From: Dipteris shenzhenensis
Lineage: Eukaryota
NCBI GenBank assembly: GCA_047967505.1
Contig: CM106538.1
Reading direction: 5' to 3' (one strand)
Length of the DNA stretch: 64,000 bases
Shown here: positions 33,541-58,699 of the stretch, piece after piece
Layout of the letters: each line of letters begins with the position of its first letter
Numbering within the stretch: the first letter of the stretch is position 1
The notes under the pieces: generated by a model
Databases searched by the model: none
Told to the model about the DNA's origin: nothing
What the model saw: the letters and a program-made list of their open reading frames with translations, nothing else
Made by a program: the position numbers and the translations under genes

Positions 33541-34446
33541 TCATTTCAAAATCAAGCTTCTCAGCATAGTCCTGAATACGAAGCTCCAACTGGGTAACCC
33601 TTTGGTCCCATACTGGGTTCCGACCTGTGCAAACCCACTTGGCCTGCTACCCTTGGCATCTTCATAGTTCAGGGCTATGGCTATTGCATCATCCAACGTG
33701 TTCGCATACTTAGCCCGAACTTCCATTTTAATCCGATCATTCAATCCAAATATGAAATCTTTCACTTGGATTGATTGAGGTAGGGGTTCATCAGCCTTCA
33801 TTACGCTCTCTCGAAACTTATCAGTGTATTCTGCCACTGACAAATTTCTCTGACGAAGGTTTCTATACTGATCCCAAGCTCGGGATGCTTCGTCAGGAGA
33901 TAAGAAGTGTTTTCTGAATTCCCTTTTAAACCCCTCCCAGGTAGTGGACGCAATACCATCCTTTTGTTGTTTAATCCACCACCGATCCGCTGCCTCACTA
34001 AACATGTGGGTGGCCTCGCGGATCTTCTTAATATCATTTCTGATTTCACAAATGGCGAACGCCTTGTCCCATTTGTGTAACCAGGTCTCAATGACATCAG
34101 AACTACGGTCATTCATCCGACCAGAATACTTTTTCGGCCTATAATTGGCAATATTAGGTACTTTAGCCTTTCTAGGCTCGACCGTATGGACACTAGACTC
34201 CGGTTCCATCAGAGCCTTTCCTTTCTCATCTCGAGAAGGTCTGGCAGACATACTGTGTATCACTCTTCTAAGTTCAGACTGCCATGCATTTGCCTGTAAC
34301 TGTTGCGCTAATAACTGCTGCAAGGCATCCTCAAGTAATGCTATCCTGTCAGATAAGGTGTGAACTACTGGGCGCGACACCTGCTGGGTCGGCCGGACTC
34401 CTGACTCACCAGGGTCCCTCCTAGAAGCTCCTTCTTCTGCTTCCAT
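33541..34446 (-). CDS. gag: Retrotransposon Gag, inverted relative to its PBS and pol, C-terminally deleted
   Basis: 301-aa ORF with AADRWW, TWEGFKREF, LRQRNLSVAEYTDKF and FIFGL; no CCHC knuckle. Confidence 0.9.
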   Translation of the reverse strand: MEAEEGASRRDPGESGVRPTQQVSRPVVHTLSDRIALLEDALQQLLAQQLQANAWQSELRRVIHSMSARPSRDEKGKALMEPESSVHTVEPRKAKVPNIANYRPKKYSGRMNDRSSDVIETWLHKWDKAFAICEIRNDIKKIREATHMFSEAADRWWIKQQKDGIASTTWEGFKREFRKHFLSPDEASRAWDQYRNLRQRNLSVAEYTDKFRESVMKADEPLPQSIQVKDFIFGLNDRIKMEVRAKYANTLDDAIAIALNYEDAKGSRPSGFAQVGTQYGTKGLPSWSFVFRTMLRSLILK

Positions 34447-35307: not shown

Positions 35308-37890
35308 GCCTCTGTATAGATTATAGAGCATTGAATAATATCACTGTTAAGTACAGGTATCCGATGGCTTGGATTGATGATTTGCTAGATGCATTACATG
35401 GAGCCGTGATTTTCAACAAGATAGATCTTAAGTGTGGCTACCATCAGATCCAGATTAGAGCCGAGGATGTGCATAAAACCGCTTTCAGAAGCAAATTTCG
35501 TCATTATGAGTTTTTGGTAATGCCCTTCGGACTTACCAATGCTCCAACTACATTCGTCATGCTTATGAACGATTTACTACGTCCGTATATCGGAAAGTTT
35601 GTAGTACATTTTATTGACGATATTTTAGTGTTCAGTAAAAGTATTACTGAGCATCGTGAACACTTAAGAATAGTGTTCAGTACTTTGAGGAAAGCCAGTC
35701 TTTATGTAAATAAAAGGAAAACTATATTGTGTATCGTTAGACTTGAATATTTGGGATTCATAATTACTCCAGAGGGGGTAGAAATGGAACCAAAGAAAGT
35801 GGTTGCGATACTGACTTGGCCAATCCCTCAGAGTGTGACCACTTTGCGACATTCTTGGGATTTGTCCAATTTTATAGAAGGCATATCAAAGGATATTCCA
35901 AAATAGTATTGCCATTGACTGATCTGACCTTAGATAAAGTACCTTTTATATGGGGACAGAATCAACAAGAAAGTTTTAACACCATAAAACAAGTTGTGGT
36001 CACAGGACCGGTGTTAAAAATAGTTGATCCCCAGAAACCGTTAGTCCTGAAAACCCATGCAAGTGGCATTGCGGTAGGAGCAGTTCTCCTTCAAGAGGAA
36101 AGGCCAGTAGCCTTTGAAAGCAAGCAGTTTTCTCCCTCCCAAAGGAATTGGCCAACTCATGAATTGGAGTTGTATGCTGTTATCCATGCTTTGAAAACAT
36201 GGAGGCATTATTTGTATGGTTCTGAGTTTTATGTGGATGTGGATCATGATATAACATTTTTGTAAACAGCCTGACTTGAGGGGCCGCCAAGCTAGGTGAG
36301 CAGAGCTCATGCAGGAGTTTAATTTGACGATTCGGTACCGAAGAGGGAAGGATAATAAGGTTGCTCATGCGTTGTCTCGCATTATGCACAATATGAGTTT
36401 TACGGTATTAGAGAGTGGTCTAATGACCGAGATTAGAGAAACTCAAAAGGTGGACGAGTTTGTCTAGAGCTTATGGCCTAAAGCTCATGTGTTTAGACCA
36501 GGGGAAGAAAAGCATGACCTGGCATCCAGAAAAGACCAAACTTATGCAAGATATAACATAAGGGATGGTATGCTGAAAAGAAATGGCAAGGTAGTAGTAC
36601 CTAGTCAGAATGACCTCAGGCAGAGAGTCATTCAATAGTGCCATGATAGCCCATATGCGGGACATCCAAGAGTCGAGAAGACATATGATCTCGTGAAGCG
36701 AGATTTCTTTTGGCCAAAGATGAAAAAGCATATTCATGAATATGTGACACGGTGTTTTTCGTGTCAGGTAAGCAAGGCCGAGCGGGTGAAGCCACCCGGA
36801 CTTTTACAGCCCTTGGAGATACCACTACGTAAGTGGGAAAAAATTTCCATGGACTTTATTGTAGGGCTGCCTACGACACAAGGTGGATATGATTCTATCC
36901 TTGTGGTGGTTGATCGTCTAACCAAGATGGCTCACTTCATTCCGACTAGAGAGTCTGTTAGTGCCCCGCAAGTGGCGGATTTGTTTATTAGACATATATT
37001 TCGTCTGCATGGATTGCCTAGATCCATAGTGTCAGACAGAGATGTCAGATTTACCGGTCATTTTTGGACAGCATTATTTGAGACGCTAAGGACTGAGTTA
37101 GGAATGAGTAGTGGGGATCATCCTGAAACGGATGGTCAGACGGAGAGAGTCAACCAAATTTTAGAGGATATGCTGAGGGCATATGTGTCATTGAGGCAAC
37201 ATACGTGGGACAAGTGGTTGCCATTGTTAGAGTTTGCCTACAATAATAGAAAACATTCCTCTACGAAGTTTAGTCCGTTTTGAATTGAATTATGGTTATA
37301 GACCAGCAAATCCAACTACAGTTGGAATACCTCAGAGAGTGCCTAGTGCCGTGAACTTTGTGGTTCAGATGCGGGAGATGCTAGCACTTGCGAGAGCTAA
37401 TATCCGCCAGGCTATGGATAGAGCCAAGGCGTATGCGGATGAAAACCGGTCTATAAGAGAATTTAAGGAAGGAGAAAAAGTTTTTCTCAGAGTTCCTTCG
37501 CACTCGAAGTCGTTAACTTCAGGAGAGTGTGCTAAGTTATCACCTCGATATTGTGGGCCGTGGTTAATTCTAAAGAGAATAGGGAAGGTAGCCTATAAAT
37601 TAGAATTGCCACAGGGGTGTAAGGTGCATCCAGTGTTTCATGTTTCGCACTTAAAGAAATTTTTACATACAGATGACTCACTAATCAAAGGTGTGGTTTT
37701 GTTTCAGGAGATAGAGGATAATGCAAGGCGCAAACCAACAAGAATCCTCGACTGAGAAACAATGCAAATACGAAATCGGAAGATACCCACGGTGTTGGTT
37801 GCATAGCATGGTCTGCCTCTATCAAAAGCTACCTGAGAATCCGTATACCAGTTGCGGAGAGTGTTCCCGGACTTTATCATCGAGGACGCT
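35308..37890 (+). pseudogene. pol: Gypsy pol (RT-RNase H-integrase-chromodomain), with frameshifts and stops
   Basis: LCIDYRALN, MPFGLTNAP and FIDD; RPVAFES...ELELYAV; ISMDFI, SDRD and QTERVN; YCGPW GPY/F motif; degenerate chromodomain after PTRILD. Confidence 0.93.
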
Positions 37891-39309: not shown

Positions 39310-39314
39310 CCACT

Positions 39315-40304
39315 TTTAACCGGAAATGTAATCGAGACCAGAGGCTATAGACTAAGTATGGCGACGCTCAAAGGCCATAGAGAAGAGGAGAGCATGAGGG
39401 CGAAGGGATGACATAGGGGTGAAAAAGGAATTAGAAGGGGAGGGAAGGAAAAGGGAGACTATGACACAAGGGGAAAGGGAGAGGGGGAAGAGAAGCATGA
39501 ACATGATAGGAGGAGGAATGTTGAGATGTAGACATCAAGGGAAGTGATCCATACTTTATTGGAAAGAAGGGATGAGAGGGAAATATCAAAATACTAGCTA
39601 GGTGGCTTTACAAGAATGAGCGTGTCTCATCAAGGAATAGCCCCTTCCTTTTATAGCCAAAAGAGGGGGTCTCTCCACATTAATGTCTCCTCCCACATGC
39701 ATGGTGTGTGTGGAAAAGTCTCCCATGTGGGCTAGGTGGGTACGCACTCTCAATTGTGTGCGACAACCCTTTGCCTCAATTTTCCACATAAATCAAGCTC
39801 CATATCTCAAGTCTATGATACTCCCTTGGTCTCTTTCCAATTTTATAATAGGTTCAAACCTCTAGGAGGACAAGTGGAGGGTTGGCACAAGGAATCTTGC
39901 CACCTCATCCTACTTTCCCCATTATTTAACTAGCTCTCTTTGTCCTTCTATACCTCCCCCACATGGGCCTATCCCATATGGAGGGAATAACTCAATATAA
40001 TAGCCATCTCCACCCATTTTATATTGCTTCTCCCATGGACTTTGAGCCATATCTCACTTAATGCATCCTAGGTGGAGGGGTGGCACATGGAGGAGCCATG
40101 CCACCTTGCATTTTATAATATTACTATCATGGATTATGTACAACACACCTTATGGGTCCTCTTACATGGAAGGGTGGCACATGGTCATGCCTTGCCACCT
40201 CAACCTTGGGCCCTATGCACACCATATTTGATTATACTATTGCCACATATACAAACACACATACATATTAATGCCTTTTTCCTTAGACAATTTTATCCAT
40301 AACA
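39315..40304 (-). repeat. 3' LTR (990 bp)
   Basis: Direct repeat of 47301-48290 with about 4 substitutions by eye; preceded on minus by the PPT GGGGGGGGGAAC. Confidence 0.95.
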
Positions 40305-43300
40305 GTTCCCCCCCCCAGGCAGGGAATGCACCGCATTTCCATGCCTGGGACCATCACGCACGAAGAAAGGCTTGAGGTAGCGCTTGTTGATCACCTTCTT
40401 GCCATATGGTTCATGCAGCTCCTGAACTTGTACAGACCCATTGCTACGTTCTTTGATGACTTTGTATGGACCAGCCCACAGTGGCAGAAACTTCTTATCC
40501 ATTTGGTGGTCCAATCTGTTATCAAAGCATAGCACAACATCCCCCTCAGCAAAGTGTCTTTCCCATCCCTTGCGAATCTTAGCATCCAATCGGGCCTTTT
40601 GTCGATTCTTTTGGATCTCTGTCTGGTGTAGTGCAAGGCGTCGGGTCTCATCTAACTTCTCAAGTTGTACCAATCTGGCCTCTACACATTCATCTTCTGT
40701 CATCCTCTGTTCCTGCGCCAATCTCAAGGCCGGAATCTCTATCTCTAGTGGTAAAACTGCCTCAGTACCATACACCAACTCAAAAGGGGTGTGACCTGTA
40801 GATGTTTTATGAGTGATGTTGTAAGCCCACACTGCTTCAGTGACCTTCTGATCCCATTGGCTCCTATTCCCTGCGGCCATTTTTCCAATGGTTTTACAGA
40901 GGAGGCCATTGGTCCGCTCTGTTTGACCCATGGATGCTGGATAATAGATGCTAGAAGTGCGATGATCAATGCCCATGCGATCCATGAGTAATTCTACTGC
41001 TTCATTTAAGAATGGACTCCCATGGTCAGAGACTATCTCCATGGGTGTCCCAAACCTTGTGCAGATACGTTTAAAGATGAAATTTGAAACTGCCTTGCCA
41101 TTTGCAGCAGAGAGGGCGATAGCTTCAGCCCACTTAGTGACATACTGAGTGGCTACCAAAAGATACTTCTTTTTGCGGGCAGTCATGGGCAAGGGTCCGA
41201 CAAAATCTATGCCCCACTTCTGAAACGGATGGATGGACATCACTGGGTGATGTTGCCCAGGACGCAAATCCTTCCTACCGAAGAATTGACATGGTTCACA
41301 GGTTTTGCAATACAATGTGACATCCTTGAACAAGGTCGGCCAATAGTATCCAGCATGTAAAATCTTCTTAGCTGTATAGTCACTGGCATAGTGGCCTCCA
41401 CAAAATCCATCATGATAATGCTTCAATACCTTAGGCACTTCATCTGCATCAATGGCCCGTCTGAGCACCCCATCCATGCCTTGACGGTACAACACCCCAT
41501 CAAGGAGGGTATAGCGCCTACTATCTCTGCGGATCTTCTTTCTCTCATAACTAGTACTTTCTGAAGGAAAGGAGAAAGCGGTCAAAAACTTATAGATACC
41601 ACCATACCAAGGATCCCCAACTTCTATGGCTGCTACAAGGGTTACATCAAGGCACTCCTCTAAATCAATCAAAGCATTCTTCAAGTTGGAACAACCCCCT
41701 TTTACAATTTTGAAAGAAAAATCATATTCTTGTAGAACTGCCAACCATTTGGCCAACCGGCCCATGGGATTTGGTGATTGAAGAACCTGCTTTGCAAGAC
41801 CAGTGTCAGTGAGTATAAAGAAGGGCCTTCCAGCCACATAATGCTTAAATTTCTCAATGCAAAACACCAAAGACAAGGCATGCTTGTCGGCCTCTGAATA
41901 GCGTCGCTCGGTGTCGAGCAATTGTCGAGAAGCAAATCGAACGGGGTACATGAATCGATCCTCCTCTTGCTGGAGAAGAATACCTGCTAGAGTGTGCTTA
42001 CCAAACCCAGGATTGATATAGAAGGTCTTTGACTAGTCTGGATTGCGTAGAATGGGTTCTGAAGCCAGAGCATTCTTGATTTGTGCAAACCCATGATCAC
42101 AATCCTCATTCCAAGAGAAATCAACCCCATCTTTTAATAGCATAGTCATGGGCCGTGTCAAAGCAGCATACTGATCAATGAAGCGGCGATAGTATCCTGC
42201 TAGATTGACAAATGAGCGTACCTGACGTTTGGTTGTAGGTGGGGAGAGCTTGAGGATGGCTTCTACCTTCTCGGGGTCAGGCTTGATGCCCTCGGATGAG
42301 ACAACATGTCCCAATAACCTCCCTTGAGTGGCTCCAATGGTGCATTTCTCAGGGTTGAGACTGCCATTTGCATCATTGACCCTTTGGAAGGCCAATCTAA
42401 CCTTCATGACGTGCTCCTTACGTGATGAGAATATACAGAAATCATCTAAAAACACCTCCAAGAAATCCCCCAAATAAGGAGCAAACACCATCTGCATAAA
42501 TCTTCGAAAGGTGGCAGGAGCATTGGTGAGGCCAAATGGCATTACTTTGAATGCAAATGTCCCCCAGGGTGTGGCAAATGTGGTTTTAAGCACATCTTCC
42601 TCGGCAATTCTGATTTGATAAAACCCAGAGTAACCATCACAGAAAGTATACATCTCATGACCACTCACCTTCTCAAGAATGAGGCCTTGAAAGGGTAGAG
42701 GATGATGATCCCTCTTGGTGGCAGCATTGAGCTTCTTATAGTCGATGCAGACCCGCCACTTGTTGTTTTTCTTTGGAATGACTACCACTGGTGAAACCCA
42801 TTCAGTATTGTGAACCGGAACAATAAACCCAGCCTCTACAAGCTTCTGCAACTCTGAGCGCAAAGCATCGGTCTGCAGGGGCCCTAATCTCCGATACTTC
42901 TGAGCCACAGGCTTTGCATCAGGCTTCAGCTCTATCTTGTGCTCTATGGCAGTCACATGGCGAAGGTGGTGGTAGCTAGTTGCAAAGAGGTCAGGGAAAT
43001 CTTTGAACATTTCAAGAAACTCATCTTTCTCACCTGGAGTGAGGTCTGGAGAAAGCATTGATTCGAGCTGTTGAGGACTAGCTGTTATCTTTTCTGCAGG
43101 TGGCAGGGTCGGAGACACCCCCATCATGTAGACTTCCTCCTCTGAGAATTCGTCCCCCCCGTCTGATTCTTCCATGGACTCAGACACTGAAGATGAGATA
43201 GTATCACTGTCTTGCACCTCTTCTTCTTCCGGTTCCATGGCACCAGGTTGCACAGGGATTTTCTCCTTGGAAGCACCAAAAGACATGTGTCCTGTCTTCC

Positions 43301-44309
43301 AATAGCTGACTGCATCACTTTTTCTCAACCATGGTCTCCCGAGTATGGCTGGGTAACTTCTGCCTGTATCTTCAATGTCCACTACATAGAAATTGACAGT
43401 GGTGGTCAACCCGTTGACAGTGATGGGCAAATCCTCAATGACTCCCATGGTGGCGAGTCGTCGACCATCTGCTACCTTGATGCGAGTGGAGGAACGCCTT
43501 GTACATTTCAAATTTAATTTCTTCATGATGCGGGGCACCATGATATTACATGCAGCTCCCCCATCAACACACACATTTTTGACACGACAATTATCTATGA
43601 TGACATCTACTGTGTGTGGGTGCCGATCAATTTCTTCAGAGATAGAAGATACCTCTCGTACCTTTCCCTTCTTCTTGCTCTTCCTTGTTGAGAGACCTTG
43701 CTGCAGCTCACGTCTCACCTTAGGGCTTAATGCTATTAGTTGAGGGAGTGTGATGCTCAAAGACCGATGAGCAAGGTCCTGAACGACCGAATAGTCTTCT
43801 TGCCCTGAGCCGATGGGAAAATCCGAGGGTGACCACTTACTCCTGCGAGATCTTTTAGTCTTCTCTGTTGGTGGGTCTGCCATCTCAGCATCTGAGGGCT
43901 CTGAGAAGGACACCTTCTTCCTGGGGCGGCCTGGTCCACGGTTTGGAGAGGGGTCCGAGGTAGCACGAGTTCTTTTCCCGAGATCAAGGATCTCCACATC
44001 AGAATCCTCAGTGCCTGACTCACTTAGAAGATTCACCCTTGGAATATTGGGGCATTCTGTGCGATAATGACCCTTCTGGTGGCACTCGTAGCATACAACA
44101 TTAGCACGATCTCTTGGAGGGCGGTTGGCTTGATTTCTGATGCCCACCATCTCAAGCCGAAGATCATTCAGGGCCTTGGCTAGGTCATTGACTCCAGGTT
44201 CTGTTGCAGGGGGGGGCATCTTTAGTTGGAGGGGCCACGGGAGTAGAGAGGAGGGGGGCTCGTGGGCGAGGCTGGGGAAATCTTCGAGGCGGAGGATGAG
44301 GATATCCAC
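40293..44309 (-). CDS. pol: Gag C-terminus plus Pol (CCHC, protease, RT, degenerate RNase H, integrase); one in-frame TAG at 42033-42035
   Basis: CYECHQKGHYRTEC; VCVDGGA; FLDD; ORFs 42033-44309 and 40293-41951 share a frame (27 open codons between them); integrase HHCC plus GIDF/SDHG/QTER. Confidence 0.93.
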
Positions 44310-44985
44310 CTTGTTGAGGGCAAGTATCTAAGGGAGGACCATACATTTGAGGTGGAGGCGGTGGATACATCCCTGATGAGGGGTGGGGGTATACCCCTGA
44401 GTTAGACCCCCCAGGTTGTTGTTGCAGGAATGGAGGGGGATGCGGAGGGACAATCGTCTTCTTTGAAGCGGGGTCAGACTGAACTTTGTCAAACTTTTGA
44501 GCAATCTCATGTGCTAGCACCATAGTTTCGGGATTCTCCCATTTAAGCTTGAGGCGAAATTCATCACTCGCTCCTGCTACAAGGTAGCCCAGCACATGCT
44601 GAGTCATTCCAGCTCGAAACCCGGCATTGTCATCCTGTGTGGCAATCAAACGGTCCAGGAGCACGGCCGCTCGATCCACATATCGACACGCCGTCTCACC
44701 TTCTGACTGCTTCAAATTTGCCACCTGCAGGTACACATTCTCCGGCTCCTCTTCTTTGCCGAAATACTCAATCATTGCTGCTGTCAACCTTGGCCAGCTT
44801 TGGCGAACATCTTCGGCTTGCTTCTCATACCACACTTGAGCCAAACCTTCTAGAAATGTGGGAAGAACCAATAGCCATCTGTCTTCAGTAAGAAAGTTGA
44901 GAGAAACACAACGGCGCTTGAAAGCCACAAGATACTCATTTGGATTTTCTTCTACCCGTCCACAAAACACGGGAATGTCAGCCAT
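44185..44985 (-). CDS. gag: Gag capsid domain
   Basis: FLEGLAQVWY, LKQSEGETACRY and a Pro-rich linker; shifts into the pol frame near the G8 run at about 44209-44216. Confidence 0.9.
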   Translation of the reverse strand: MADIPVFCGRVEENPNEYLVAFKRRCVSLNFLTEDRWLLVLPTFLEGLAQVWYEKQAEDVRQSWPRLTAAMIEYFGKEEEPENVYLQVANLKQSEGETACRYVDRAAVLLDRLIATQDDNAGFRAGMTQHVLGYLVAGASDEFRLKLKWENPETMVLAHEIAQKFDKVQSDPASKKTIVPPHPPPFLQQQPGGSNSGVYPHPSSGMYPPPPPQMYGPPLDTCPQQGGYPHPPPRRFPQPRPRAPLLSTPVAPPTKDAPPCNRTWSQ

Positions 44986-45200
44986 GCTTGGAAGATGGAA
45001 AAGAGGGGCTTATCTATGGACGGACAATAGTAAGAGGAAGCTTGAACTGAAAATCGGGCGAAGATACATCCAAAAAGCACACATAGGCAGGGTAAGGTGT
45101 GACTGGTGTAGTGTGAAATATTACACGAGAAGAATCTTCAGCATAGAATAGCACATAGACAATCTTAAAAGGACCAATCCTCATGATATCACTTTGATCA

Positions 45201-45365
45201 TTACACGCGAGGGTTAGAGGTGCGGCGTCGCATGAGGTTGTTCATCAAGGCAAACAAGAATGCCATGACAAATGTCAACAGTTGGAGAGCTTGCACATCA
45301 CCTTCAGCTTCTTCCAGTTCTTGTAGTCGCCATTCTATTTCCTCAAGGGGTGTGCGGTCTGGCAT
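45201..45365 (-). CDS. Small upstream ORF, 54 aa: charged helix plus hydrophobic segment
   Basis: MPDRTPLEEIEWRLQELEEAEGDVQALQLLTFVMAFLFALMNNLMRRRTSNPRV*; its ATG overlaps the end of the previous ORF. Confidence 0.45.
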   Translation of the reverse strand: MPDRTPLEEIEWRLQELEEAEGDVQALQLLTFVMAFLFALMNNLMRRRTSNPRV

Positions 45366-45543
45366 TCTTCTTTTGAGCAATGTCCTTGAGAACCCTCCTG
45401 ATGGTCTGCCGAAGTCGGTGAACTCGTATCAAGTAGGCCCAACACTTAGTTTCATGATGACCACAACCTTTGCATTCCTTACAAACAATCACCCTCCTTC
45501 GTGGCTTGCGGCCTTGTTGGGGTGGCGCTTCCACTCGCGTCAT
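45343..45543 (-). CDS. Small basic CCHC zinc-knuckle protein, 66 aa
   Basis: MTRVEAPPQQGRKPRRRVIVCKECKGCGHHETKCW...; exact C-X2-C-X4-H-X4-C spacing. Confidence 0.6.
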   Translation of the reverse strand: MTRVEAPPQQGRKPRRRVIVCKECKGCGHHETKCWAYLIRVHRLRQTIRRVLKDIAQKKNARPHTP

Positions 45544-45943
45544 GCGTGTTGGAAATACAAGCTTCACGTGCCAAGAAATCAGCAACAAGATTTCGAGCTC
45601 GAGGGATATGCTGAATTTTTACCTCTTCAAACTGGTTGCAAAGTTCCAAGGCCTGTTGATGTCGTAGAACCAAGCCTTTGCTCCGCACCTTCCATCTTCC
45701 ACTAACTTGTTCACACACTAGTTGAGAATCTCCTTGCACCTCCAATTGCTTGGCCTGATGTTCTTGTGCCTTTTGTAACCCAAAAATGAGCGCCAAGTAC
45801 TCAGCTTGATTGCAAGTACTTGCGGGCGAAGACTTGCTGTAACAAAACTCCTCACCACCCGGTGAAGTGAGCTTCACACCCACGCCAGCCGCCTTGGTCG
45901 AAGGTTTGTAAGCTCCATCAAATTGAAGAATCCAAGATGTCAT
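45479..45943 (-). CDS. Stand-alone archaeal/plant-type ribonuclease HI (aRH), 154 aa from ATG
   Basis: WILQFDGA, TCNQAEYLALIFGL, LEVQGDSQLV and HIPRARNLVADFLA; the D-E-D-D catalytic set is intact. Confidence 0.93.
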   Translation of the reverse strand: MTSWILQFDGAYKPSTKAAGVGVKLTSPGGEEFCYSKSSPASTCNQAEYLALIFGLQKAQEHQAKQLEVQGDSQLVCEQVSGRWKVRSKGLVLRHQQALELCNQFEEVKIQHIPRARNLVADFLAREACISNTHDASGSATPTRPQATKEGDCL

Positions 45944-46988
45944 CACACCAAGACGAGAATTTGGACATCCCAAGTTTCTCGGTAATCCAAAATAGGTAGG
46001 AGGAGAGGGTGGGGAGAATTCAACACTTAAGCCAAACGTTCAGCACCAAATAAACTTGCAATTCTTTGTTCATAGTTTATCTTAAGCCCAAAAAGAATTA
46101 CAATTTGAAGCTCGAAATGAGGCACAAAAGGCTGATTAGGTACAAATGGATTCCTTGGCCGAAACATTACCAACCATAGCCAAGCCCTAGAAACCTTTGT
46201 AATGAGATTGTGAATAAACCATTCAGGACGAGCTTTTCCACAGGAATCAACAAGCAGATGCGCCAAATCTCCCCCCAAGCTTGGGGAGCATCCCACCCTT
46301 CGAAGAAGGAAACCGTTTTGATTACCTCTAAAGCAGCAAGTAGTTCGATCACCGCACAATGAGTAGAAGTAAAGTCAAAATCCTCCCAGCGTATCAGTAG
46401 TTCGTCACCTTGAATTATCCACGGTGTGTCATTCCACCCGTCATCACCATCAATAATGCACTGGGACAATTAGCCTGGACAATTAGCCGTTGAAGGTCGA
46501 CATGAAGATCAAGGAAGACATCTCGTGCATTGGTAGCCGTAAGGTGCGGAGGAACAGGCACCAATTCCTTAAACGCGTCGAGAAGTGACATAAATGTCCA
46601 CTCTTCTCGTGAGGCGTGCGTCCGTGAAGTGGGCTTGGAGAAGTTCTGAATTGGCGATCTAGCAAGAGAAGTGGATAGAGAACATAAAATGAAATATTTT
46701 TGCTTTTTACAACAAGAGCAAACTCCTTATGGTTAGAGAGTTACAGCTCCCGCGATTTCAATATATGAACAAAAATCATTACATTTTTACCACTTCCAAC
46801 TTGTTGGCCCAATGATAAGACTTTCTTTTGTGAAGGGGGAGGTCTTGGGTTCCAATCCTACTCTTTAATAAAAAGAGAGGAGAGGAGAGGAGAAGGAGAA
46901 GAGAAAGAGAAAGAGAAAGAGAAGAAGAGAAGAGATAGGGGGGGCGCGGGATCTGCTGTTACTCTTTTGCAGCGCGACCAGAGCAGTC

Positions 46989-47175
46989 CAGAAAACAGTC
47001 CGCGACCAGAGAACTGTCGCGCAGAAAACAGTCCGCGACCAGAGAACTGTCGCACAGAAAACAGTCCGCGACCAGAGAACTGTCGCACAGAAAACTGTCC
47101 GCAACCAGAAGTCGCGGCAGTCCAGAGAACTGAAGCGCAGAAAACTGTCCGCAACAGTCCAGTGAACTGTCGCGC
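46989..47175. repeat. 33-bp tandem repeat in the element leader (3 near-perfect copies plus degenerate ones)
   Basis: Unit CAGAAAACAGTCCGCGACCAGAGAACTGTCGC(G/A). Confidence 0.9.
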
Positions 47176-47277
47176 AGGAGACGCACGAATCGAATGCTTA
47201 GAAAGAGCACAGATGGTATAGTTTTGTTGATGTAACCCGTACGAATAGAAGATTCGCCACCAGCCGTGGAGATTCGT

Positions 47278-47295
47278 ATCCCAGCAGCCACACCA
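47278..47295 (-). promoter_or_regulatory. Primer binding site, complementary to the tRNA-His(GUG) 3' end
   Basis: TGGTGTGGCTGCTGGGAT lies 5 nt inside the 5' LTR; plus strand reads ATCCCAGCAGCCACA-CCA, as in plant tRNA-His recalled from memory. Confidence 0.8.
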
Positions 47296-47300
47296 AAACT

Positions 47301-48290
47301 TTTAACCGGAAATGTAATCGAGACCAGAGGCTATAGACTCAGTATGGCGACGCTCAAAGGCAATAGAGAAGAGGAGAGCATGAGGGCGAAGGGATGACAT
47401 AGGGGTGAAAAAGGAATTAGAAGGGGAGGGAAGGAAAAGGGAGACTATGACACAAGGGGAAAGGGAGAGGGGGAAGAGAAGCATGAACATGATAGGAGGA
47501 GGAATGTTGAGATGTAGACATCAAGGGAAGTGATCCATACTTTATTGGAAAGAAGGGATGAGAGGGAAATATCAAAATACTAGCTAGGTGGCTTTACAAA
47601 AATGAGCGTGTCTCATCAAGGAATAGCCCCTTCCTTTTATAGCCAAAAGAGGGGGTCTCTCCACATTAATGTCTCCTCCCACATGCATGGTGTGTGTGGA
47701 AAAGTCTCCCATGTGGGCTAGGTGGGTACGCACTCTCAATTGTGTGCGACAACCCTTTGCCTCAATTTTCCACATAAATCAAGCCCCATATCTCAAGTCT
47801 ATGATACTCCCTTGGTCTCTTTCCAATTTTATAATAGGTTCAAACCTCTAGGAGGACAAGTGGAGGGTTGGCACAAGGAATCTTGCCACCTCATCCTACT
47901 TTCCCCATTATTTAACTAGCTCTCTTTGTCCTTCTATACCTCCCCCACATGGGCCTATCCCATATGGAGGGAATAACTCAATATAATAGCCATCTCCACC
48001 CATTTTATATTGCTTCTCCCATGGACTTTGAGCCATATCTCACTTAATGCATCCTAGGTGGAGGGGTGGCACATGGAGGAGCCATGCCACCTTGCATTTT
48101 ATAATATTACTATCATGGATTATGTACAACACACCTTATGGGTCCTCTTACATGGAAGGGTGGCACATGGTCATGCCTTGCCACCTCAACCTTGGGCCCT
48201 ATGCACACCATATTTGATTATACTATTGCCACATATACAAACACACATACATATTAATGCCTTTTTCCTTAGACAATTTTATCCATAACA
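47301..48290 (-). repeat. 5' LTR (990 bp)
   Basis: Direct repeat of 39315-40304; starts TGTTATGG on minus; followed by the PBS. Confidence 0.95.
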
Positions 48291-53449: not shown

Positions 53450-56400
53450 CCTGAAGGAAACTCAGAGAAGAAAGGAGATCCCCTCCAAACTCTGAAAAAA
53501 GTAACTCTCCTGGCAGTGGCTGCTCTGTGGAGGATCCCTGCATGCTCGCACAAATGGCCATCAAAGTGTGTACTGTGTTAGTCCAAATACTGGCCATAGT
53601 CTGGGAAGGGTAAACCTGGATACCCTCCATCGCCTCTAGACACCTGGCTCTCCAAATATGCCAAGCTACAATGCTAGCCAAAATCTCCCAAGACGTGTCT
53701 ACTGAGGCATGAGCAGCTCTGAAAGGAGTGAGGGGAATATCTTGGAGGGAACAAGACTCCACTGAGTGTCACCGTACAATGAAAGTTGGATCTGGATCAA
53801 ATCCCTCGAAAAACACCTATGGGCCAGTAAGAGATAACCAAGCCACTTAAACCCAGGTCATATAGAAAGGTGTTGTATGAAAGATGCTGAAAATCCTAGA
53901 GACACCTTTCCAGATCGTCCTCGCCTGTCTGCACTCCCAAAGGCAATGTTGTACTAACTCAACTGCCATGTGACAACGAGGACAAGTAGGGTCAACCCCG
54001 AACCTGGATCTCCACAAGTTCACTGCAATCCCTCCATGAATAGAAAGCCAAAAGAAAAGAGTGATCTTTCTATTCCTGAGGGATTTCCAGAGCCAACACC
54101 AAAGTTCTTTCGCACAGCTGCGAAAATCTAAAAACTATCCCAATGTGGCACTCTGAGGGGCCTCCAATCTCTACTACTGAGCTGAAACCTCCGGGCATTT
54201 CTAACTGTGTAGCAAAAGAAGGGAAAGCTCTTCTCTCGGTGCCCCTCATCAATCCATTCCCACTCCCCTAGGTCCCACTGCAAGAACCTAATAGGGGAAC
54301 CACCATACAGCCAGAGTCTCCAAGACCGCAGCGCAAAGAGAATGGGATCAGGGGCAAGATACCACTATGAATCCCTGCCCCACTCCATGAATCCTGCAAT
54401 CCTGACAGGCTGAAATGCAACCTCCAAAAGAATATCATCAGAAGATCTGATAAGCCTGCCTCCCGACTGAACATTAAAGACAAGGGTATCCTCCTGTGCA
54501 TCCTGCAATGCAATGATCTGTAACGGAATGCTCGTCTCTGAGAACGCTCCCCACCAAGTGGACTTTGTAAGCGGCATGTCATCTGTGTCAATCCACTCTG
54601 GCGGAATGGCTGCCTATATCTGCTATATCCTGAGTGCACTCCCTCTGAGGTGGCCAGCTGCTAAAGTCTCTGCCTCTGGAAGTCTCATAAAGGCCTGCCA
54701 AGCACCTACAGTAGAGGCAGGTCCCCTCTCCCATCTAGACCACTACATATAATGTCACACTCCAAGTGGCCTGCCATGATGATCCAAAATCGAGTCATTC
54801 CACATGACTGGCTGCCTTTCAATCTCTTCACGAGAAGTGGGTGGAACTCTGCGAAGTGTGTTTCTGAAGCAGCCCCAAGCTTTCAGAATAGCAGCCATGA
54901 GAGGGGAAGGCTGAAGTAAAGATCCATCTGCTGCTGTCCAACCAATCTCCCCCATGAGAAGGGGTGCAAGACTGAATGCCGCGTGAGAAAAAATCCTTCC
55001 AGGGCTGCTGTCCAGGTACCAATCCACATACTACAAACTTGCAGAGCAAGGCCATACACTGCAAGCTCGGGTCAATAATATTGAGACCCCCTTCTCCTGT
55101 GGGGAGAATGAGGGTCTCCCAAGCCACCCTAGCTACAACATCTAAGGTGCCATCTAAACCGCTCCATAGAAAGTTCTTGATAGGTCTCATGAGCTGAGCG
55201 ATACAACCTCTAGATCTGCAGCAACATGAGCAAACAAACCAAGCAATGGCCAACAATACCTGGTTCACAACCACAACTCTAGATGCAAGGTCAAGTCTGG
55301 CTGAACTCCAAATAATGAGTTTCCTCCTAATACTCTCCAACACAGGAGTGAACTGCTATGCCAGAGAGATGCCCAACCCAACCTAGCATCCCAGATATCT
55401 GACAGAGACTCCCCTCTAAATCCAAGTGAACCCTATGTCATCACTAATCCAAAAGCCATTGGATTTGTTCCAATTAATGTGTGCACCTGCCGCAATGCAA
55501 AACAAATCCAATGCTGTCCTAAATGAATTCAGTGTCGATGAATTGGCATCCAAAAATACAGCCGTGTCATCTGCCAACTCACTGTCTAAGAGCTCCTCCT
55601 TTTGCCTCAGAGGAAGCCTGAGCCCTACGATTCCAGCTTGAGCTCTAATGTAATAGCTCATAGCCTCAGCCACAAAAAGGAATAAAAGGGAGGCTAGGGG
55701 GCATCGCTGACGGACTGATCTGGTAATCTCAAACCTATCTCCCCTGACTCCACCAATAAAAACCTGGTTGTGGGCTGATTTGTAGAGGACTGACACCCCT
55801 CTGATCCATGCATCTGAGAAGCCAAAACGAGTAAGTGTGCCCTCCAGAAAGCCCCAATCTACCCTGTCATAAGCTTTCTCAAAGTCCAAGAGTAGAATGG
55901 CCAGCCTGTGGCCATTATGCATGGCCCAATCCAAAGCCTCTCAAAATGAGAAGATGTTATCAAAGATGCTCCTGCCATGCACAAAACCCGTCTGCGTATC
56001 ATGGATAAGATCTGGTAGAAAGGGCTGCAGACGAAGGCTAATAGCTTTAGCTAGGATTTTGTACAAGGTACCCAGCAAGGTAATTGGTCTCCACTAAGAC
56101 ACTAAATTCCTGCAACCCCCTTTTGGAATCAAATGAATGAGGCCCTCCGTAAGTGAGTCTGGCATCTCACCTGAGTCCCATACACCCTGTAGGGCTAAGG
56201 TAATATGATCCCCAATCTAATCCCAAAAAGGTTTAAAAAATAAGGAGGTAAGTCCATCTAAACTAGCGCTCCTGAATCGAAGCATTTGTAGGCCTCTTCT
56301 GCTTCTCCCTCTGGAGGGCAGCCAACTACTGGCGGATATCTATCTCACGCCTGAGGATCTCACCCCTTCTGATACGAGCAATTGAATGATAAAAGTCACT

Positions 56401-57300
56401 GATATCAAAGAGGGCTGCGGCTAAGTATGAAGGAGAAAGCTGCCCATCCAGCAAATGAGATACCCAGGTCCTCAACACTGTCTCTGTAAGGCCCTCCTCT
56501 GCATAGAAAGAATCTGGAATCCTAACACCGGCAGAGCGGTGCCTCACATGGAGATCTGAGACCATCAAAACCACTAGAAAATGATCCGAAGTGGACACCC
56601 CAGCTGCAATGCAAACAGTACCACCTTTGTCAAGAACCCAATCATCCACATAAAATATGTCAATCCGTGCATGTATAGGCATCTGCCATCTCCTGTTCGA
56701 CCAAGAAAACATGAGAGAATGTGGCTGAGTGTGAAAAGCATCATCATGCCAAGCATCCCTACCACTGTATTGAAAAAGGAAGGCATCCCACGCTGCTCTC
56801 TCTAGGGAGTGAATGCCACCTTCCCTACCACCCCTTTTGTCTGAGGGCATTTCAACCATGTTGAAATCGCCCCCTATAATCCAAGCATCTGCAATATGTG
56901 ACCAAGAGAGCAGTTCCTTCCAAAAAAGAACACGATCCCCTCTAGAATTGGGTGCATAAAGGTTTAAGAGACCAACCTTATGCCCATCAATCAAAAGTAT
57001 AATCCACTGAGCTCTAGAAGGGACTATGATCCCGTGTCCAATCACCAAGGGGAGTATAGAAGAAGAAACAGAACTGCAAGTACCTCCCCTGGTGCCCAAG
57101 GCGGGTGACCAAAAAGTGTGGCCTGAGAGAAGCTTACCCGACTTAGACCAATCCTTGGCATCCAATTTGTGTTCCTGAATCATCAAAATGTCCATGGGAC
57201 GCCCAGTAACACCTGGATGAAGTTGGTTACGAATCAGTTGCCTGCGGCGACGGTGAGGTATACCCTCGAGGCCCTGAATGTTCCAACTAACAATCCTCAT
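53450..57300 (-). pseudogene. L1 ORF2 (AP endonuclease, RT, C-terminal region), disrupted
   Basis: MRIVSWNIQGL, IQEH, NLYAPN, GGDFN and SDH; LDFEKAYDRV, VRQRCPL and LADD; WHIWRARC. Confidence 0.92.
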
Positions 57301-58699
57301 CTGCGAGAGGAGGAGGCCAAATTGAATATCCTTCCCGACTTGGTAGCGGAGAAAGCCCTCTCATGCGAAAAATTCCTCCTATCAAGAGGAGGGAAGTCAA
57401 CTAGGAAAAGCACCCCCCCCTGCTGAGGGGGAAACTCTGTCCTGGAAGATATGCTCCCCAAGCGTGGAGGGTACAAACTCCTCCTCTGCCTCAAACTCAA
57501 CCAAGTCTGCCATAACTGAAAATGAATTCTTGCGAAGTACCTCTGGCCAGGAGTGTGAAGGAGCTCTGGCGCAGGAGTGCGAAGGAGCCCTGCACAAGGA
57601 GGAGTGGAACCAATAACCCCCTTACCTCAGTCGGGTGTAGACAAATGTGGCCACAACTGCATGACCTCAGCCACAACTTTGTCATTGTCTTAAAGCACGG
57701 TTCTCTGCAGAAAGATTCTCCCTAGATCAACGCTCTTGTATCTGAACAAGGTCAGGAGCAGTCTCATCTACATATGGAACCAAGACAGGGATGTCTCCTG
57801 CCTGAAGAGACGGGCAAAGGCAGTCAGGTCCGATGGGGTACCGCATGTTAGAGTCATTGTCTCTGACCCTAACATCTCGGATGGCCACATTATGCTTCGG
57901 CGTCCAGATGGCTCCTTCTTCAGACAGAGAGTCAAGATTGCAAGGAGATAGGATCAATGTAGGATTTGCAGGACCCTTGGGCACTTTGCCAGAGATTGTC
58001 CAAGGAAAAAGAAAAGACCAAAAAGATCCACAGGTGCGCCTCATAGCTTCACCAGACCTGGACCTTCTTCACGACCAGTTCCTTCGACTTCACAGCCAGG
58101 ACCATCAGCCTCTCGTTCTGGTACTTCTATAGCACGGACATGACAGCTAGCACATCTTGCTTCGGTCCTCCCCCATTGGGTGCCTATCAAAAGTTGGTGA
58201 GCCAGTACCTCAGGCTACCACTGATGGGGCCACGGACACCTGAGGAAGGCCTGAAAATCTGATGAAGAGTGACGTCGTCCGGCTGTCTTCCTCGACAGGA
58301 TCAAACCCCAGTGAAAAAGGGGTCAATAAAATCCTCCTGAAGCCCAGTGCTAGCGGACTAGCCTGAAGCACTGTACGTGCTACCTCCGAGGAGTCAAAAA
58401 CAATATGGAAGAACCTTGCCCAAGCAGACAAACATCTGAGAAGTGCCCTGCGAAGTCTCCAGGTAGAGCGCGGCGAGTATCCAATCCCTGGCTTGTAACC
58501 TAGAAGGGGACCCATGGATGCGAGCAAAGAGTGAAGTCGAGCTCTCTTGCTCTATATCTTTTTTGAGCTACTGTAACTCATCTTTAAATGATGGTTTTTG
58601 CGGCCGATGGAAGTGGGTGAGGATTGGTTGAAGGCAGAGCCATTGTCAATCAGGGTGGAAAGGCCAAGCGAGCACAGTTGAACTCCATCCGACTAAAAT

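Follow-up and report, generated by a model that had tools for sequence, protein, structure and literature searches.

Directly behind the stand-alone archaeal-type RNase H (aRH) ORF of a Ty3/Gypsy retrotransposon, the next frame (ORF2) encodes an Arg/Lys-rich peptide with a zinc knuckle of the nucleocapsid type, as a sequence-only reading of this DNA had proposed. The motif, CKECKGCGHHETKC at 45483-45442, has the exact CX2CX4HX4C spacing, and the 66 residues of ORF2 hold 18 K+R against 4 D+E. Judged from its sequence, the knuckle is a real-looking module, unreported behind aRH, in an element of a known type. We lean, tentatively, toward a leftover of the aRH module that is not translated.

The overlapping ORFs belong to a complete LTR retrotransposon of the Ty3/Gypsy type that occupies 39312-48290 on the minus strand (Table 1) and that Pfam and self-BLAST delimit within the window, that is, the whole 64-kb stretch of DNA analyzed. 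The two LTRs, 993 bp each, are 99.6% identical (99.597% in self-BLAST) and differ by 4 mismatches. Pfam domains on the minus strand run in the order gag, knuckle-PR-RT, and RH-INT, which is the Ty3/Gypsy order gag-PR-RT-RH-INT; no Chromo domain was matched in the integrase ORF, and self-BLAST found no second copy of the element within the 64-kb window. From the LTRs, the domain order, and the position of aRH, we assign the element to the Tat lineage of Ty3/Gypsy, with the layout known as "structure #4" or pre-capsid. It is a young element, recently inserted and slightly damaged. The integrase ORF crosses the polypurine run and stops 12 nt inside the 3' LTR (40293-40304). The leader contains an imperfect repeat (47006-47177) of ~56 nt with 82% identity, which gives repetitive peptides in several frames. 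Elsewhere in the window are pieces of other retroelements: a Ty3-type gag (33541-34446, minus strand), fragments of RT and integrase (35364-37283, plus strand), and a LINE-like endonuclease with RT (55416-57300, minus strand).

Table 1. Features of the retrotransposon and of the ORFs around the aRH-gag interval
Feature	Position in window	Strand	Details
5' LTR	47298..48290	-	993 bp; matches 39312-40304; minus-strand start TGTTATGG
Primer-binding-site-like stretch	47272..47295 (ends approximate)	-	Begins TGG; 2-3 nt past the 5' LTR
Leader	45944..47297	-	1,354 nt; 16 ATGs; internal repeat 47006-47057 / 47122-47177
Stand-alone aRH ORF	45479..45943	-	154 aa; Pfam RVT_3 1.7e-26
ORF2	45343..45543	-	66 aa, basic; +1 relative to aRH; frame equals that of gag, with 7 stops between
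Zinc knuckle of ORF2, CX2CX4HX4C	45442..45483	-	Motif scan, window against shuffles
ORF3	45201..45365	-	54 aa; +1 relative to ORF2; acidic N-terminal part, hydrophobic stretch
Antisense ORF	45232..45705	+	157 aa; spans ORF3, ORF2, and the aRH tail
gag ORF	44185..44985	-	266 aa; Pfam Retrotrans_gag 2.4e-5
pol part 1: NC knuckle (44093-44052), protease, RT	42033..44219	-	+1 relative to gag across an eight-C run
In-frame TAG between RT and native RH	42033..42035	-	Within ...NPD*SK...; the frame then continues into RH-INT
pol part 2: native RH and integrase	40293..41951	-	Pfam RT_RNaseH 3.9e-17, rve 2.5e-13, Integrase_H2C2 1.6e-12
3' LTR	39312..40304	-	G-rich polypurine run ahead of the LTR

The placement of aRH before gag, which had at first been taken as unusual, is an arrangement already in print: elements that carry aRH as an ORF of its own upstream of gag make up the Tat "structure #4" of Biryukov & Ustyantsev 2023 (PMC10508981), which is listed there for four mosses and Selaginella tamariscina, and the same layout is named "pre-capsid" by Prokopeva et al. 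2026 (PMC13468544). The defining trait of the Tat clade is an additional RNase H of the archaeal type (PMC6317226). With the structure #4 or pre-capsid elements, the present one shares the Ty3/Gypsy domain order and an independent 5' aRH ORF ahead of gag. The words "zinc" and "CCHC" do not occur in the main texts of PMC10508981 and PMC13468544, so these texts do not describe a +1-frame knuckle after aRH, and the supplements of these papers may hold the same family. Tat elements of the structure #3 or post-integrase type (conifers, Cycas, Ginkgo) also carry aRH outside pol, in an ORF of its own, and raise the same question about the route into the reverse-transcription complex, but their aRH ORF sits at the other end of the element. 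Ogre/Tat elements have extra ORFs upstream of gag (PMC4408406) and resemble this element in having additional frames within the long leader of a Tat-clade element; those ORFs are large and related to the plant mobile domain or to transposase 28, whereas ORF2 is a 66-aa knuckle.

For aRH, Pfam matches RNase_H (4.9e-8) besides RVT_3 (Table 1), and the DEDD core is intact, with D9, E48, D72, and D122 invariant or nearly so in an alignment of 22 sequences. AlphaFold2 returns an RNase H fold with a pLDDT of 87.8 overall, above 90 for residues 1-132 and below 50 for residues 133-154; in this model, the fold is confined to residues 1-132, and residues 133-154 are predicted to be disordered. At the start of the native RH (41952-42032), by contrast, no TDAS-type first-Asp motif was seen by eye, and INPGFG follows the stop. 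A HMMER alignment with the Ty3 RT/RNase H (4ol8) places an Asp at the position that we take to be the catalytic Glu of Ty3 RNase H, with the first Asp outside the alignment. Read by eye and through an alignment that ends short of the first Asp, the native RH may fit the degradation published for Tat, in which it affects all aRH-bearing structures (PMC10508981), structure #4 with its altered catalytic positions among them. Because the native RH after RT appears to have lost catalytic residues, we infer that aRH would supply RNase H in trans.

Among the 150 matches listed for aRH in a collection of protein representatives, only two were ~80% identical, both of them fragments. In IMG/VR, aRH retrieved 70 loci (L001-L070), many of them on GVMAG-labelled contigs; their RNase H is only 27-41% identical, and we rejected them as members of the family. 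A search of JGI metagenome contigs with the aRH alignment or gag gave pattern matches and no relative, prokaryote genome contigs contained no family member, and pol found none in IMG/VR.

With ORFs called from ATG to stop in the standard code, the listing reproduced the coordinates, lengths, overlaps, and peptide features of aRH, ORF2, and ORF3 as they had first been described. The ATG of ORF2 lies 65 nt inside aRH and that of ORF3 lies 23 nt inside ORF2, each step being a +1 change of frame. With followers counted from 50 aa upward, an anchor ORF was trailed by two overlapping ones at 2 of 198 anchors in the window and at none of 2,063 in shuffles, and by a single one at 16/198 and 102/2,063 anchors, respectively. 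A double train is hence uncommon but not decisive, because the scan inspects so many ORFs. A polycistronic leader read by reinitiation or frameshifting is not supported; with 16 ATGs in the leader ahead of the aRH start and 17 further ones from there to the start of gag, this is no clean polycistron. Translation of aRH and gag behind so many upstream ATGs probably needs splicing, shunting, or internal entry.

Three features mark the position of the knuckle relative to aRH. First, the +1 frame is open from 45618 for 91 codons, and the ORF2 ATG and all four knuckle ligands are intact. Second, the start of ORF2 coincides with the end of the aRH fold in the AlphaFold2 model. Third, the codon for the first knuckle Cys overlaps the aRH stop codon (45481-45479). 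The knuckle of ORF2 shares with the nucleocapsid knuckle (PF00098) the exact CX2CX4HX4C spacing, the position of GH, and the basic surroundings; it differs in being encoded by a short frame of its own, apart from gag, and in falling below the Pfam reporting threshold. A single-sequence fold of ORF2 (mean pLDDT 66.5, ~55 at the knuckle) has one long helix at residues 31-60 and no knuckle, and is not informative. A recent origin of the knuckle by copying from the NC of this element was rejected as well: 22 of 42 bases agree in register, and, with a fraction of 0.05 of 300 shuffles reaching the local alignment score, we do not count the DNA similarity as significant.

One explanation for the train would be that its breaks are private to this copy, so that intact copies would have one long aRH-knuckle(-peptide) ORF. 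The copy does carry damage elsewhere. There is an in-frame TAG in pol, and the +1 frame change from gag to NC-PR-RT, with the NC knuckle in the pol frame, falls at an eight-C run (44209-44216, minus strand) in which, at 44209/44210, contigs from two of the sequencing runs used below (X1, depth 25/28.2; X2, 4.51/4.51) are one base shorter, while contigs from a third (X3) are not. The shorter form may reflect variation of a homopolymer between copies or assemblies, or else a slippage site.

Sister copies give a different answer for the aRH-ORF2-ORF3 interval. In the protein collection there is a sister lineage whose aRH is 79-82% identical. Among the 24 sister proteins listed, 14 have exactly 154 aa and terminate at the same codon as aRH, 10 are shorter fragments, and none is longer than 154 aa. 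Sister DNA was drawn from Logan contigs of four coded runs (share of words at most 0.16). None of these runs was listed as RNA, though X4 might be. One X2 contig of 1,027 nt, 93.6% identical, covers 45060-46083 and thereby spans aRH, ORF2, and ORF3 with 66 differences and no gaps; further contig pieces are gap-free over 45210-45500, 45231-45446, and 45478-45726. None of the indels seen falls within 45201-45943, among the 12 of 26 indels listed. Because the sisters end at the same codon and the contig is free of gaps, it is very improbable indeed that the breaks are private to this copy, and no fused ORF was seen among these sisters. From these comparisons, the aRH stop and the frame layout are a property of the family and not a private mutation. 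Also borne out is the proposed free state of aRH: its ORF (45943-45479) stands by itself upstream of gag, and 14 sisters share its stop.

Constraint on the ORF2 frame itself is a separate question. Identity of the sisters to the aRH in the window is 84-88% over residues 1-129 but 44-52% over residues 130-154, the stretch that overlaps ORF2. Parsimony from 11 sister aRH tails gives an ORF2 frame that is open over its first 22 codons, with the ATG kept in 11/11, and with 4-5 codons changed in the ORF2 frame versus 10-12 in the aRH frame. The inferred sister changes at 45513, 45526, and 45539 are present in real contigs. This estimate is biased toward conservation of ORF2, since changes that are silent in aRH are invisible to it, and a neutral simulation conditioned on the changes visible in aRH reached an outcome this good with p = 0.068. 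This hints weakly, and no more, that the first 22 codons of ORF2 are constrained in their own frame.

Two of the differences listed (40 of 364) fall in the remainder of ORF2, knuckle included: V51, which is synonymous, and N60D. As this listing is ranked by support, the density of its differences per region was left aside. Piece by piece, divergence is 4.2-5.5% in ORF2/ORF3, 4.1-5.2% in the aRH domain, 5.8% in the non-coding leader, and 2.1-2.2% in the gag N-terminus. ORF2/ORF3 divergence is therefore no lower than that of the aRH domain or the leader, and it is higher than that of the gag N-terminus. No ORF2 homologue of 36-116 aa was found in a collection of 5.8 billion proteins, and none of the 189 proteins fetched, among them the best 150 representatives for aRH, contains the CX2CX4HX4C pattern.

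Such divergence would also be expected if ORF2, its CCHC motif, and ORF3 were all accidents of a non-coding spacer, a spacer that holds the 17 further ATGs mentioned above and many short ORFs. Other observations point the same way: Pfam gives ORF2 no zf-CCHC match even with E values as high as 10 and no family that passes the cut-off, and very many windows were scanned. The Pfam result should be read beside that for the element's bona fide NC knuckle, which itself reaches only E 0.03 and 14.8 bits. Against an accident stands the frequency of the motif. Over six frames, 30 shuffles gave CX2CX4HX4C 0.07 times on average and once at most, while the 64-kb window has it three times, a non-random occurrence; the other two motifs are the element's own NC knuckle in pol and one on the plus strand (57958-57999). 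The ORF2 motif, moreover, sits within 1 nt of the end of an RNase H ORF and between basic flanks, and the double train of followers was not reproduced at any shuffled anchor. We consider chance a decidedly improbable source of the whole arrangement.

The explanation to which we lean, with slightly less than even confidence, treats the knuckle as a remnant of the aRH module that goes untranslated. It would have arrived when that module recombined into the leader, or would derive from an older aRH-knuckle fusion, and it would have been kept mainly by the youth of the element. The lack of an ORF2 homologue, the lack of the CCHC pattern in the 189 proteins, and a divergence like that of the flanks all point toward a leftover. 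Several observations speak against it. An old relic should decay, yet the ligands, the ATG, and the 91-codon frame are intact. The start of ORF2 at the end of the fold and the start of the knuckle at the aRH stop look designed. Recognition of ORF2 by a language model is 2538, above the 2300 line. The tail simulation gives a weak hint in the same direction.

A functional knuckle, made either as a fusion by a +1 shift or as a separate small protein, might load aRH into particles; we regard this as possible, though on the unlikely side. In such a mechanism, the knuckle would tether the trans-encoded RNase H to the element RNA and so bring it into virus-like particles. Under frameshifting, some ribosomes would shift +1 in the disordered aRH tail (codons ~133-154) and produce an aRH-linker-knuckle fusion that binds RNA and enters particles. 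The geometry seen in the sequence fits a +1 frameshift: the frame is open, the ORF2 ATG is at the end of the fold, and the Cys codon lies on the aRH stop. The tail that such a shift would cross is poorly conserved in the aRH frame and better conserved in the ORF2 frame (p ~0.07).

The programmed +1 frameshift of Ty3 GAG3-POL3 takes place at GCG AGU U. In the aRH frame, GCG AGT G (45538-45532, minus strand) matches this site at 6/7 bases, and GCGAGT is rare, with only 12 occurrences in the window on both strands. The two systems are thus alike in the +1 relation of consecutive ORFs and in a 6/7 heptamer in the right frame. They differ in that the host here is of the plant type, the junction is aRH/knuckle and not gag/pol, and the product is hypothetical. 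They differ also in the fate of the motif among relatives: at the putative shift site, 14/14 full-length sisters have Thr-Ser in place of Ala-Ser, and the site is not conserved. The aRH/ORF2 overlap contains neither a further known +1 heptamer nor an X XXY YYZ motif, no fused protein was met among the relatives found, and a direct in-frame fusion would have been simpler. That the action of aRH from a separate ORF has been called an open question (PMC10508981) leaves room for a device of this kind. On balance, a frameshift fusion is unlikely. Splicing as another means to fuse aRH with the knuckle was rejected; the only GT..AG candidates span 40-55 nt, which we judged too short for plant-type introns.

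ORF2 might instead be translated alone, by leaky scanning or reinitiation, as a 66-aa nucleocapsid-like RNA chaperone, and ORF3 perhaps likewise. The ATG kept in all 11 inferred sisters is consistent with this, and so are the basic composition and the canonical knuckle; the nearest Atlas clusters to ORF2 are small zf-CCHC proteins (score 0.90, a lead only). However, the ATG context is weak (ACGCATGA), and two intervening ATGs lie inside aRH. The protein searches returned no homologue of 36-116 aa, the single-sequence fold forms no knuckle (pLDDT 55 there), and the element already has an NC knuckle at 44093-44052. Adding the probable break of ORF3 in a relative, described next, we hold separate translation to be improbable.

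ORF3 contains 9 D+E, a hydrophobic stretch (LLTFVMAFLFALM), and RRR, and it had been suggested to encode a membrane anchor. Its best 19-residue Kyte-Doolittle window scores a marginal 1.78, versus the classical 1.6, but the uninterrupted core is only 13 residues long. Pfam assigns ORF3 to no family, and its language-model recognition is low (1781). In the relative P0168, parsimony, with unseen synonymous bases assumed unchanged, places a stop at ORF3 codon 13 and changes 9/54 residues. The open frame on which a membrane anchor would depend is thus apparently not kept in this relative, and ORF3 most likely arose by chance in the 494 nt that separate the stop of aRH from the start of gag.

P0168 came to light through the antisense ORF, of which it is the one homologue. 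The similarity of this 195-aa protein is confined to 45208-45426, and its continuation is unrelated; with one partial homologue and no family, the 157-aa antisense ORF was rejected as a real gene. The loose-end consensus of three X3 contigs behind 45403 leads, by eye, into the RLKLVDS stretch of P0168. Together, P0168 and the X3 loose ends suggest that a more distant family has the side from ORF3 to gag and not the aRH-knuckle side. Since only the ORF3-to-gag side would be common to that family, a homology boundary is expected to lie inside ORF2.

Retroelements with two RNases H are a model for how retroviruses acquired RNase H. An aRH outside pol is the hard case, because it is a free 17-kDa enzyme without an obvious route into the particle. 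If the knuckle behind aRH were conserved and expressed, it would provide a concrete packaging mechanism for an RNase H encoded outside pol and would answer how a trans-encoded RNase H replaces the degraded native one; if made by a shift, it might also be a rare instance of +1 frameshifting in a plant-type retroelement. If it is a leftover, as we tentatively favor, the knuckle would still mark the boundary, and possibly the origin, of the aRH module that moved into the leader.
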